Of a DNA stretch of 64,000 nt, positions 6,496-34,502 are shown piece by piece; position 1 is the first letter of the stretch, and the number at the start of each line of letters is the position of its first letter. The notes under the pieces were generated by a model that was given only the letters and a program-made list of their open reading frames with translations, ran no database searches and was not told the DNA's origin. Position numbers and translations under genes: made by a program. This stretch comes from Escherichia phage vB_EcoM_JB75, in the sequence record MH355584.1. One strand, written 5' to 3'.

Positions 6496-9636
<3,141 letters not shown>

Positions 9637-30854: not shown

Positions 30855-31088
30855 ATGAAAACTTACCAAGAATTTATTGCTGAAACTGCTGATGTAAAAG
30901 TTGAGTTTATTTACTCTGGCAAGAAAGATAAAATGGGTGAAATGCCTCATGGAGTTCTTCGTGATGCATTAGATAATTTCGGTCAACTCGCCGCAGAAGA
31001 TTACGGTGATAAAATTGTTGTTACTGGTCCTGCTGCAGTTATTGAAAAATGGGCAGCAGAAAATAAATCAATTTTTCGTAAAAAATAA
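30855..31088 (+). CDS. internal protein (CTS MKTYQEFIAE)
   Basis: Track ORF from 30843; the ATG at 30855 gives MKTYQEFIAE, the canonical T4 IP capsid targeting sequence; own promoter and SD. Confidence 0.7.
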   Translation: MKTYQEFIAETADVKVEFIYSGKKDKMGEMPHGVLRDALDNFGQLAAEDYGDKIVVTGPAAVIEKWAAENKSIFRKK

Positions 31089-32117: not shown

Positions 32118-32190
32118 TGGGAATTAGCCAAGTTGGTAAGGCATAGCACTTTGACTGCTAGATGCAAAGGTTCGAGTCCTTTATTCCCAG
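32118..32190 (+). tRNA. tRNA-Gln (anticodon UUG)
   Basis: Cloverleaf by eye: acceptor TGGGAAT/ATTCCCA, anticodon arm TAGCA-CTTTGAC-TGCTA, T-loop GGTTCGAGTCC. Confidence 0.8.
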
Positions 32191-32191
32191 C

Positions 32192-32278
32192 GCGAGAATG
32201 GTCAAATTGGTAAAGGCACAGCACTTAAAATGCTGCGGAATGATTTCCTTGTGGGTTCGAGTCCCACTTCTCGCACCA
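32192..32278 (+). tRNA. tRNA-Leu (anticodon UAA)
   Basis: Acceptor GCGAGAA/TTCTCGC, anticodon loop CTTAAAA, long variable arm, encoded CCA. Confidence 0.8.
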
Positions 32279-32283
32279 AATTT

Positions 32284-32357
<74 letters not shown>

Positions 32358-32367
32358 ATTTAATTTA

Positions 32368-32441
32368 CTCCGTGTAGCTCAGTTTGGTAGAGCGTCTGCT
32401 TTGGGAGCAGAATGTCGTAGGTTCAAATCCTGCCACGGAGA
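32368..32441 (+). tRNA. tRNA-Pro (anticodon UGG)
   Basis: Acceptor CTCCGTG/CACGGAG, anticodon arm TCTGC-TTTGGGA-GCAGA, T-loop GGTTCAAATCC. Confidence 0.8.
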
Positions 32442-32443
32442 CT

Positions 32444-32533
32444 GGAGGCGTGGCAGAGTGGTTTAATGCACCGGTCTTGAAAACCGGCAGTCGCTCCGGC
32501 GACTCATAGGTTCAAATCCTATCGCCTCCGCCA
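32444..32533 (+). tRNA. tRNA-Ser (anticodon UGA)
   Basis: Acceptor GGAGGCG/CGCCTCC, anticodon loop CTTGAAA, long variable arm, encoded CCA. Confidence 0.8.
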
Positions 32534-32538
32534 GTTTT

Positions 32539-32614
32539 GCTGATTTAGCTCAGTAGGTAGAGCACCTCACTTGTAATGAGGACGTCGGCGGTTCGATTCC
32601 GTCAATCAGCACCA
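32539..32614 (+). tRNA. tRNA-Thr (anticodon UGU)
   Basis: Acceptor GCTGATT/AATCAGC, anticodon arm CCTCA-CTTGTAA-TGAGG, encoded CCA. Confidence 0.8.
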
Positions 32615-32615
32615 A

Positions 32616-32690
32616 GGCCCTGTAGCTGGAAGGTTCAAGCAAGCGACTCATAATCGCCAGATGGTGGTTCAATTCCACCCAGGGCCACCA
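32616..32690 (+). tRNA. tRNA-Ile/Met (anticodon CAU; T4-type tRNA-Ile reads AUA after modification)
   Basis: Acceptor GGCCCTG/CAGGGCC, anticodon loop CTCATAA, T-loop GGTTCAATTCC, encoded CCA. Confidence 0.7.
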
Positions 32691-32703
32691 AATTAAGAAT
32701 TAA

Positions 32704-32790
32704 GGGGAGTTATCCCGTAGAGGTAGCGGTGTGGACTGTAAATCCATTGTCATTGCGACTCGGGTGGTTCGACTCCATCACTCCCCACCA
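32704..32790 (+). tRNA. tRNA-Tyr-like (anticodon GUA), long-variable-arm type
   Basis: Acceptor GGGGAGT/ACTCCCC, anticodon arm GTGGA-CTGTAAA-TCCAT, variable arm, T-arm GGTGG-TTCGACT-CCATC, CCA; D-arm is weak so it could be a variant or pseudo-tRNA. Confidence 0.55.
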
Positions 32791-32794
32791 ATTT

Positions 32795-32869
32795 GGATGT
32801 GTAGCTCAGTGGTAGAGCAGTTGACTGTTAATCAATTGGTCCATGGTTCGAATCCATGCATGTCCGCCA
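32795..32869 (+). tRNA. tRNA-Asn (anticodon GUU)
   Basis: Acceptor GGATGTG/CATGTCC (two GU pairs), D-arm GCTC-AGTGGT-AGAGC, anticodon loop CTGTTAA, T-arm CATGG-TTCGAAT-CCATG, CCA. Confidence 0.7.
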
Positions 32870-32873
32870 AATA

Positions 32874-32949
32874 CGAGGCATAGCTCAGAAGGAAGAGCAA
32901 GGACCTTCTAAGTCCTGGGTCGTAGGTTCGATCCCTACTGCCTCGACCA
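32874..32949 (+). tRNA. tRNA-Arg (anticodon UCU)
   Basis: Acceptor CGAGGCA/TGCCTCG, anticodon arm AGGAC-CTTCTAA-GTCCT, T-arm GTAGG-TTCGATC-CCTAC, CCA. Confidence 0.8.
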
Positions 32950-33049
32950 GACAAGAAGCCGGGTCGCTACCGGCAAGTCGTCGGACTGATGTTCCCTGTT
33001 TAAGGACTGGTATTAATAAATCTTTATGTTTTGTTAATGTCCCCTTATA

Positions 33050-33225
33050 TCACAGCAGAAACGGCGCACCGAATTATCGATTCGAGGAAATATCTTTGCC
33101 GTAAGCCGAGTAGCGTTTTTGACGGAACGTTCGGATATGGTCGAGATATGGCCTTTTAAAAATATTGAGTAGCGTCAACTGCTTAATAACCGGGTTCGAA
33201 TCCCGGCGTTTCGTACAAACACTTG
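33050..33225 (+). ncRNA. candidate small stable RNA with tRNA-like T-arm (possible counterpart of T4 species 1/2 RNAs)
   Basis: Non-coding stretch after tRNA-Arg containing CCGGG-TTCGAAT-CCCGG with flanking AGAAACG/CGTTTCG complementarity about 150 nt apart; ends at a terminator. Confidence 0.35.
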
Positions 33226-33265
33226 CCTTAGCAGGTGGAACCCCGACAAGGTTGCCGCAAGGCTT

Positions 33266-33293
33266 AGCCCCGACCGAAAGGTTGGGGCTTTTT
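33266..33293 (+). terminator. rho-independent terminator (copy 1 of a duplicated element)
   Basis: AGCCCCGACC-GAAA-GGTTGGGGCT followed by TTTTT. Confidence 0.7.
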
Positions 33294-33339
33294 AGTATAA
33301 ATAAGTATATTAAAACCCCGAATTAAAACAGGAAATAAG

Positions 33340-33813
33340 ATGAAATCATATGCTCAATTTTTAAATGAAGCGGTGTTAAATGAAGCATCTAGCACCGAAA
33401 TTCAAGCTGTCGCAAAAGCAGCCATTGCAGCGGGTAAATATTCCTATAAAGATGCTTCTGACGAATCACGATTCCAATTTGCTCGCGACATGAAAGCAGA
33501 AGGATTTACGGGAAATGCAGTTAGTATGGCCTGGAAAAGTCTAGTTGCTACTGGCGCTGCTTTTGCAAAGGCTTCGGGTAAACCTGCTCCTAAAGCAGAT
33601 CCTAAAGCGGCACAAGAAAAAAATATCGTTAAAGGAATTATCGCTAAATATGAAGCTATCCTTAAAGAGCTTTTAGTAATCAAAACCGAAGGCCAAAAGT
33701 TAGCCCGTGCTTATAGTTTCAAAGATAATCCACATGTTCACTCTCTTGAGTATGTTGAAGACATCCAAAAAATTATTAAAGACCGCATTTGGTCTGCTAA
33801 ACAAATCAAATGA
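33340..33813 (+). CDS. internal-protein-like protein (CTS-like MKSYAQFLNEA)
   Basis: 157 aa, Ala/Lys-rich; CTS-like N-terminus with LNE cleavage motif; flanked by identical terminators. Confidence 0.6.
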   Translation: MKSYAQFLNEAVLNEASSTEIQAVAKAAIAAGKYSYKDASDESRFQFARDMKAEGFTGNAVSMAWKSLVATGAAFAKASGKPAPKADPKAAQEKNIVKGIIAKYEAILKELLVIKTEGQKLARAYSFKDNPHVHSLEYVEDIQKIIKDRIWSAKQIK

Positions 33814-33820
33814 CATTCTT

Positions 33821-33848
33821 AGCCCCGACCGAAAGGTTGGGGCTTTTT
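33821..33848 (+). terminator. rho-independent terminator (copy 2, identical)
   Basis: Same hairpin and T-run immediately after the 33340-33813 gene. Confidence 0.7.
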
Positions 33849-33938: not shown

Positions 33939-34502
33939 ATGAAAACCTATGCCGAATTTTTAACCGAAGCAGCAAAATTACCATCTGAAGCAGATCTTAC
34001 TAAAGTATTCTTCCAATTGGACCCAAAAGACCGCGGCGATTTTCTTAAGTGGAAAGCTAAAGCTATTGAAATGTACAACATCGATAATAGTTCTTTTACA
34101 ATGAGTCAAGAAAATAAATTCAATAAAGCATTTTTCAAAATTTCTAAGAAATTGGCATCTGGCGCTCAGGTTCCTAAATCTGTGTTAGCTACTCCTGAAC
34201 GCGCACCTGTTAAAATTTCTAAGAATATGTTCGACACTAAAAAATACGTTAATGCTTTGAATAAAGCTCTTGATGCATTGGATGATGCAAAGAAGGCAGC
34301 CCGCGATCTTCAAGACGTGTACACCGATTTTGACCGCAAAACTAAAGGTTCTATTTCAAATAGCGAACGCAATAGTGTAAGTGTTTATTCTGATAGCCTT
34401 GATGTTCTTGGCGATGCGTATACTGAAATTAAAAATCGTATTAACACTGCATCTAAGCTAAAAGCTGCTGCAGAAGCTATAATAACTAAACTAGGTAAAT
34501 AA
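33939..34502 (+). CDS. internal-protein-like protein (CTS-like MKTYAEFLTEA)
   Basis: 187 aa; CTS-like N-terminus with LTE cleavage motif; terminator follows. Confidence 0.6.
   Translation: MKTYAEFLTEAAKLPSEADLTKVFFQLDPKDRGDFLKWKAKAIEMYNIDNSSFTMSQENKFNKAFFKISKKLASGAQVPKSVLATPERAPVKISKNMFDTKKYVNALNKALDALDDAKKAARDLQDVYTDFDRKTKGSISNSERNSVSVYSDSLDVLGDAYTEIKNRINTASKLKAAAEAIITKLGK

Follow-up and report, generated by a model that had tools for sequence, protein, structure and literature searches.

What is encoded in the roughly 300 nt that follow the last tRNA gene, tRNA-Arg, in the tRNA region of Escherichia phage vB_EcoM_JB75 (sequence record MH355584.1)? We examined this interval within a window of 64,000 nt, the whole stretch of DNA analysed here, to which all positions refer unless stated. 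An earlier reading of the letters made without database searches (the sequence-only reading) had treated 32950–33260 as one candidate stable RNA with a tRNA-like T-arm, and had suggested either a counterpart of the two small stable RNAs of T4 or a split or intron-containing tRNA. A BLAST search with 32940–33310 matched 805 records of phage genomes, nearly all of which were T4-like phages of enterobacteria. One record was 100% identical over this interval (MZ234027, Escherichia phage vB_EcoM-CHD2BS1, Tequatrovirus) and T4 was about 93% identical; the source phage is of the T4 type (Tequatrovirus). In the T4 genome (NC_000866), rnaD (71053–71171, "small, stable RNA; species 2 RNA", 119 nt) lies directly after tRNA-Arg, and rnaC (70908–71046, "species 1 RNA", 139 nt) is on the same strand as tRNA-Arg. 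Pairwise mapping placed tRNA-Arg, rnaD, and rnaC of the window in the order, strand, and position of NC_000866. The rnaC of the window was identical to T4 70908–71046 at 137 of 139 bases, and it showed 100% identity to a sequence from RB3 that was deposited under the name "rnaC: species I RNA". In regards to rnaD, the sequence starts 1 nt past the CCA of tRNA-Arg and aligned to positions 4–119 of T4 rnaD with about 85% identity (84.7% to AF158101). The suggested correspondence with the two small stable RNAs of T4 therefore held base for base, and the 300 nt taken as a single element proved to be two independent RNAs and a 3′ trailer. These results indicate, with little room for doubt, that the interval after tRNA-Arg carries the rnaD and rnaC orthologues, which would form the tail of a ten-tRNA polycistronic transcript ending at the terminator at 33266–33294.

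The element is not new, being the already known species 1 and species 2 RNAs of T4. Both have been known since the 1970s and were sequenced decades ago. Both RNAs derive from the T4 tRNA region and their roles were given as unknown in 2010 (PMC3014915); northern blotting confirmed both in 2022, and they were classed as late RNAs "of yet unknown functions" (PMC9697503). The features of the interval are summarized in Table 1, in which the 5′ and 3′ ends of rnaC and rnaD were adopted, as were the processing steps discussed below, from the T4 annotation and literature.

Table 1. Features of the interval downstream of the JB75 tRNA cluster (window positions).
Feature	Position	Strand	Evidence
tRNA-Arg (UCU), last gene of the 10-tRNA cluster	32874..32949	+	ARAGORN; Rfam RF00005, 65.8 bits
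rnaD orthologue (T4 species 2 RNA, about 120 nt)	32951..33070	+	Alignment to T4; consensus fold
Spacer GAATTA, 6 nt, between rnaD and rnaC	33071..33076	+	Mapping to T4
rnaC orthologue (T4 species 1 RNA, 139 nt), tRNA-shaped	33077..33215	+	T4 identity; covariance model; fold z-score
rnaC acceptor stem, 5′ strand CGAUUCG, pairing with 33207–33213 with two central U.U mismatches	33078..33084	+	Compensatory changes
3-bp helix AGG/CCU (33085–33087/33152–33154) closing an irregular hairpin (33090–33149) at the place of a D-arm; apical loop UUGACG (33119–33124)	33085..33154	+	Covariation
10-bp hairpin with 6-nt loop CGUCAA (33173–33178)	33163..33188	+	Two-sided changes in 9 of 10 stem pairs
rnaC T-arm, 5-bp stem CCGGG/CCCGG, 7-nt loop UUCGAAU	33190..33206	+	Middle pair G-C, U-A, A-U, or U.G among homologues
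rnaC acceptor stem, 3′ strand CGUUUCG (33207–33213), discriminator-like U (33214), and A (33215)	33207..33215	+	Alignment
3′ trailer of the tRNA-operon transcript, 50 nt	33216..33265	+	Conserved with T4; fold
Intrinsic terminator of the tRNA/rnaD/rnaC operon	33266..33294	+	10-bp stem with 7 G-C pairs; T-run

ARAGORN and Rfam identified ten tRNA genes at 32118–32949 (Gln, Leu, Gly, Pro, Ser, Thr, a tRNA with a CAU anticodon, Tyr, Asn, and Arg), and the gene order of the tRNA region is of the T2L/RB1/RB3 type, without segB (type according to PMC2330249). The element had been said to end at a terminator, and an intrinsic terminator was found there (33266–33289 followed by a T-run). In T4, transcription crosses the whole tRNA cluster and stops once the gene for species I RNA has been read; the tRNAs and the two small RNAs, species I and II, all derive from this primary transcript (PMC2330249). 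The trailer contains a small hairpin at 33220–33237, and the fold of 33210–33300 had a z-score of −4.63. This trailer was found only in operons that end with rnaC; in other genera, a tRNA follows rnaC directly. Upstream of rnaC, the spacer has the form CCA-A-A-N-N-A in all of the genera examined. The published northern probe for T4 RNAC (PMC9697503) is identical to window 33077–33134.

Four observations were made on the surroundings of the interval. The tRNA at 32616–32690, called Met(CAT) by ARAGORN, occupies the slot of the T4 tRNA-Ile, has the same anticodon loop (CTCATAA), and is identical to the T4 gene at 47 of 75 positions; it is probably an AUA-reading Ile tRNA and not a Met tRNA. The tRNA-Tyr at 32704–32790 scored 30.2 bits against an Rfam tRNA gathering score of 29, and its apparent counterparts in relatives are labelled "tRNA-Pseudo-GTA". 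An identical 28-nt terminator, AGCCCCGACCGAAAGGTTGGGGCTTTTT, is present twice, at 33266–33293 (after rnaC) and at 33821–33848 (after the next gene, 33340–33813), a repeat that may serve as a substrate for recombination or may represent a duplicated module. Furthermore, the small ORFs 30855–31088, 33340–33813, and 33939–34502 around the tRNA cluster have a common N-terminus, MK(T/S)Y(A/Q)(E/Q)F(L/I)xEA, and are otherwise little alike; they may belong to a small phage protein family with a common leader.

The T-arm CCGGG-TTCGAAT-CCCGG noticed in the sequence-only reading is present at 33190–33206 and belongs to rnaC. The 64-kb window contains 11 copies of its core, GGTTCRANNCC, versus 0.37 expected; nine are located in annotated tRNAs, one at 33193–33203, and one stray match at 7403. 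The fold of rnaC alone (139 nt) had a free energy of −50.2 kcal/mol and a z-score of −4.55. The covariance model R1 scored the rnaC of the window at 152 bits and found a single copy in the window, the other weak matches being ordinary tRNAs aligned via their acceptor and T-arms. In rnaC numbering (add 33076 to obtain window positions), the acceptor stem comprises 2–8 and 131–137, the 3-bp helix 9–11 and 76–78, and the long irregular hairpin 14–73, and these are completed by the single-stranded joiner UUUUAAAAAUA, the 10-bp hairpin (87–112), A113, the T-arm (114–130), the discriminator-like U138, and A139.

The covariation check in related phages that had been suggested for this interval was performed with informative rnaC homologues from Karamvirus, Kanagawavirus, Winklervirus, Gelderlandvirus, Mosugukvirus, Marfavirus, Moonvirus, an unclassified Citrobacter phage, and IMG/VR and metagenome contigs. 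The RNAalifold consensus on a structure-blind MAFFT alignment of 11 sequences from 7 genera (A3) contained 43 pairs, 30 of which showed compensatory changes. When the specified structure was imposed on the same alignment, 91.4% of the cells were paired and 31 of the 50 pairs had changed on both sides, compared with 38–48% and 5–8 pairs after the partners were slid by 1–3 columns. The 29 homologues of a larger alignment (A8, at least 9 T4-like genera) back the same cloverleaf-like fold, with 92.1% of the cells paired and 32 of 50 pairs changed on both sides (slid controls, 37–49% and 6–9 pairs); A8 was fitted to the structure of the covariance model, so its pair counts lean toward that structure, and the structure-blind A3 agrees. 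All 19 pairs of the 60-nt hairpin (33090–33149) vary, 18 of them with two-sided changes. In the acceptor stem, the third pair is A4-U135 in the T4 type and G4-C135 elsewhere, and in phage PM2 C2-G137 is replaced by A2-U137 and both U.U mismatches by U-A. The length of rnaC is nearly constant (138–142 nt across homologues). These results support a cloverleaf-like architecture for rnaC, in which the two ends pair into an acceptor stem of 7 bp that stacks on a canonical T-arm.

The 3′ end and the T-loop differ among lineages. U138 is followed by ACA in T4-like lineages including JB75 (A at 33215, after which the genome continues with CA), and U-CCA is encoded in Marfavirus and PM2, so that the resemblance of this end to a tRNA extends as far as the CCA in some phages. 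In the rnaC of some Kanagawavirus (IME523) and Winklervirus (Virsaitis27) phages, the T-loop is UGCAUGC or UGCAUC, not UUCGAAU, and the T-stem is retained. Judging from these sequences, a canonical T-loop is not universally required, and its loss in these copies weakens any mechanism that strictly needs recognition of the T-loop. Two candidate elements were rejected. The 5′ acceptor strand is complementary to the T-loop (GATTCGA/TCGAATC), but this match is not retained in IME523 or other genera and reflects the common palindromic TCGA, and the tRNA-Lys-like CUUUUAA, considered as an anticodon-loop decoy, is limited to the T4 type and varies elsewhere.

The sequence-only reading had also described flanking complementarity that could form an acceptor-like stem about 150 nt apart. 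The complementarity is real, since 33058–33066 (GAAACGGCG) and 33204–33212 (CGGCGTTTC), most likely the segments meant, match over 9 nt at 89%; its role as an acceptor-like stem was not upheld. This stem overlaps the T-stem, has its 5′ arm inside rnaD, and would bridge two RNAs, and it is absent from phages that possess rnaC without rnaD. The acceptor stem backed by covariation is instead formed by 33078–33084 and 33207–33213, 129 nt apart.

The apical loops of the two hairpins of rnaC, UUGACG (33119–33124) and CGUCAA (33173–33178), are complementary at 6 of 6 positions in 28 of the 29 homologues, with stems that vary. The loops of Marfavirus are UUGGCG and CGCCAA, which represents a joint change from A-U to G-C, and PM2 keeps 4 of the 6 pairs. 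The sequences thus point to a candidate intramolecular kissing loop that would compact the body of rnaC. We put its chance only slightly above even, because the joint change represents a single evolutionary event (Marfavirus).

We compared the conservation and distribution of the two RNAs. Of 745 phage records, 490 had rnaC at 99% identity or more and 680 at 95% or more, and rnaD was at least 99% identical in 43 of 735 records, with a range from 75% to 100%. Karamvirus, Kanagawavirus, Winklervirus, Gelderlandvirus, Mosugukvirus, and Marfavirus carry rnaC without rnaD within tRNA arrays, with tRNA-Trp and tRNA-Gly as its neighbours in one example, and with the short spacers that also separate the tRNAs. 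Conversely, Dhakavirus and Providencia phage PSTCR6 were found to have rnaD but not rnaC. In Dhakavirus, rnaC is cleanly deleted from a region that retains tRNA-Arg, rnaD, the trailer, and the terminator; this loss indicates that rnaC is non-essential and that any function it has is dispensable or host-dependent. In Dhakavirus CLBP2 (fetched locus, 800–1000), a natural knockout of rnaC, the sequence runs from rnaD via ...GCGCACCGAA into the trailer, CACTTGCC..., and on to the terminator. PSTCR6 carries a 933-bp segB-tRNA-Arg-rnaD cassette (fetched locus, 696–1628) with 94.7% identity to T4, which stops exactly where rnaD ends on its 3′ side; tRNA-Ile comes next. The occurrence of this cassette, with its homing endonuclease gene segB, in a distant Straboviridae phage and its exact end suggest that it may have been transferred by homing. 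rnaC and rnaD are independent modules.

To survey rnaC more widely, a 21-base degenerate pattern was used, which matched all 13 of the rnaC-containing loci fetched by that stage. The pattern gave 8 matches in 185,579 bacterial and archaeal genomes, and none of these scored with the covariance model. In IMG/VR and metagenomes, all of the pattern matches confirmed by the model were phage types already met; a first, stricter IMG/VR pattern had given one match, which was unrelated.

In regards to rnaD, the 5′ hairpin GCCGG-GUCGCUA-CCGGC is located at 32958–32974, and the RNA ends in ...GGCGCACC. Across 11 diverse copies (A6), approximately 45 nt at the 5′ end and 25 nt at the 3′ end were almost invariant and the central hairpin was hypervariable. 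Pairing at the base of the central hairpin was kept through two-sided changes, and the closing pair of the 5′ hairpin CCGG-GUCGCUA-CCGG alternated between A-U and G-C; since the flanks vary too little, this closing pair and the central hairpin are the informative positions for covariation in rnaD. Its own fold was unexceptional (z-score, −1.47). Since no T-arm adjoins its 3′ end, rnaD is not tRNA-like; its structure is that of an irregular hairpin whose flanks are invariant. When a T4-like phage was adapted to E. coli ECOR34, 3 of 3 lines were reported to carry an identical single SNP in rnaD (PMC12685909, 2025).

Several explanations of the interval other than a structured, non-decoding RNA were weighed. 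The sequence-only reading had raised a split or intron-containing tRNA, and a permuted one belongs to the same group; the 3′ 94 nt of rnaC would then be the tRNA, with an acceptor stem of 33122–33129 and 33207–33214. T4-type sequences indeed contain an 8-bp complement, ACGGAACG/CGUUUCGU (rnaC 46–53 and 131–138), which underlies a weak tRNA-Sec match (16.6 bits) and the GenBank calls "tRNA-Met" (PG7) and "tRNA-Lys(ttt)" (G4507). However, this tRNA-Sec match, the best in the Rfam tRNA clan, compares with a gathering score of 47, ARAGORN called no tRNA at 32950–33260, and the sole tRNA hit of Rfam within the interval comes from the end of tRNA-Arg. The alternative stem has one pair broken in 7 of 11 homologues, shows a single two-sided change, and competes with the hairpin and loop pairs that covary. 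Moreover, the supposed UUU anticodon sits in a joining region that varies (CUUUUAA, CUCUUAA, CUUUGAA, and CUUACAA), and the 60-nt hairpin replaces the D-arm and the 10-bp stem with its 6-nt loop replaces the anticodon arm. We consider a tRNA of this kind extremely improbable, and the same holds for two small protein-coding genes, a 42-aa ORF (33031–33159) and a 53-aa ORF (33165–33326). Both ORFs exist in the window, MZ234027 annotates CHD2BS1_247 and CHD2BS1_248, and many records give "hypothetical protein", but the first ORF has an in-frame stop in T4 and several stops and net indels of 1–2 nt in divergent homologues, and the second has its start replaced by a stop in several lineages and would elsewhere run into tRNA-Gly. 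The substitutions in rnaC keep base pairs, not codons. The earlier statement that the interval holds no convincing ORF is in agreement with these data: none is conserved in 32950–33330, and both the 42-aa and the 53-aa ORFs are stopped or frameshifted in homologues including T4.

The tRNA-like ends of rnaC and its loss in one genus would also fit a decaying tRNA relic, a pseudogene carried as a functionless passenger in the tRNA cluster. This explanation is very unlikely in view of the extreme conservation of rnaC (at least 99% identity in 490 of 745 records) next to an rnaD that drifts to 75%, the pairing upheld by compensatory changes across at least 9 genera, and the constant length of 138–142 nt. 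Finally, the RNAs could be a purely cis-acting module that guides maturation or shields the 3′ end of the operon transcript and has no function in trans. Their position in Tequatrovirus, at the 3′ end of the operon and beside the terminator, agrees with such a module; a tRNA-like end would recruit RNase P as tRNAs do, and Dhakavirus manages without rnaC. In at least six other genera, however, rnaC is located in the middle of the array and not at its 3′ end, both apical loops and the joining region are invariant though distant from any cleavage site, and rnaC accumulates as a stable species in T4 (PMC9697503), which leaves the cis-acting module an unlikely explanation. We rank a tRNA mimic as the most likely reading and cis-acting processing next, with the relic, the coding genes, and the split tRNA each given a very small probability.

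The fold of rnaC leads to the following scheme of its processing. Through the helix of its acceptor stem and T-arm, rnaC would become a substrate for the host enzymes that mature tRNAs. A cut by RNase P would generate the 5′ end of rnaC and at the same time free rnaD at its 3′ end. The trailer would then be removed by exonucleases down to the stem, which would leave a nuclease-resistant, discrete, and stable rnaC of 139 nt. The scheme is based on this fold, on the literature on T4 tRNA precursors (PMC2330249), and on work from the 1970s–80s, and release of rnaC by the maturation enzymes along these three steps is very probable.

We propose more tentatively, as a model with a less than even chance of being right, that rnaC may be a non-decoding, trans-acting tRNA mimic that binds a protein recognizing the tRNA shape; an enzyme of processing or modification, or a host defence factor directed at tRNAs, would be an example. 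A more specific version is rather doubtful as a whole: a compact, non-decoding mimic locked by the kissing loop might act as a decoy or competitor for a tRNA-recognizing host factor (a defence nuclease, or a processing, modification, or CCA-adding enzyme) or, in the U-CCA lineages, might be charged for a non-ribosomal or tmRNA-like reaction, and rnaD might tune host-specific fitness. The last part is hinted at by the SNP fixed in 3 of 3 ECOR34-evolved lines (PMC12685909). tRNA-directed phage defence is an active field, and a conserved tRNA mimic in phage tRNA arrays is a reasonable candidate for a counter-measure. The covariation-backed fold, the candidate kissing loop, the CCA-encoding lineages, and the natural rnaC deletion of Dhakavirus provide handles for experiments.

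The annotation of the stretch is also affected. In most GenBank records for T4-like phages, the 100% identical record among them, it is labelled "hypothetical proteins" or given as a spurious tRNA. MZ234027 (fetched locus, 1598–1887) has hypothetical proteins, and PG7 (1546–1640) and G4507 (346–439) have tRNA-Met and tRNA-Lys(ttt), respectively, both placed on the 3′ 94 nt of rnaC; among the listed records, only a handful bear rnaC or rnaD labels. The Rfam scan that had been suggested for the interval was run, and no family in Rfam 15 matched either RNA; beyond the tRNAs, the matches over the interval at gathering and permissive thresholds were at chance level. With Rfam having no family for either RNA, a covariance model like R1 would correct hundreds of annotations.

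We compared rnaC with the known classes of RNA that it resembles. Like a canonical tRNA (RF00005), it has a 7-bp acceptor stem followed directly by a 5-bp T-stem with the loop UUCGAAU and one discriminator-like base, and it is embedded in a tRNA array with spacers of 5–6 nt. Unlike a canonical tRNA, it has neither a D-arm nor a 7-nt anticodon loop, about 105 nt separate the 5′ acceptor strand from the T-arm, the acceptor stem contains two U.U mismatches, ACA stands in place of CCA in JB75, and tRNA finders and models do not detect it. In tmRNA (SsrA), which is an RNase P substrate, the paired ends form an acceptor stem stacked on a T-arm and enclose a large non-tRNA insert, and rnaC likewise has acceptor and T-arm ends around a non-tRNA body. 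It differs from tmRNA in having no tag reading frame and no series of pseudoknots, in having G3-C where tmRNA has the alanine-identity pair G3.U70, and in its size (about 140 versus about 360 nt). No tmRNA was called in the interval by ARAGORN or by Rfam at gathering and permissive thresholds, and no conserved ORF was found there. rnaC is neither a tRNA, whole or split, nor a tmRNA, nor a gene that encodes a protein. The tRNA-mimicking non-coding RNAs, such as the bacterial Y-RNA-like YrlA, are stable RNAs with a tRNA-like module and are thought to bind proteins rather than to decode. The Ro-binding stem of YrlA is made by its ends, with the tRNA-like part lying inside, whereas the ends of rnaC form the acceptor stem, and the two show no sequence or Rfam similarity. 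In T4 and JB75, the genes, their order, strand, and place after tRNA-Arg, and the terminator are the same. The two rnaC sequences differ by two substitutions, both of which are in stems, and the two rnaD sequences differ in the central hairpin; the spacer after rnaD is AAATTA in T4 and GAATTA in JB75, by which the CCA encoded at the rnaD end of T4 becomes CCG in JB75.
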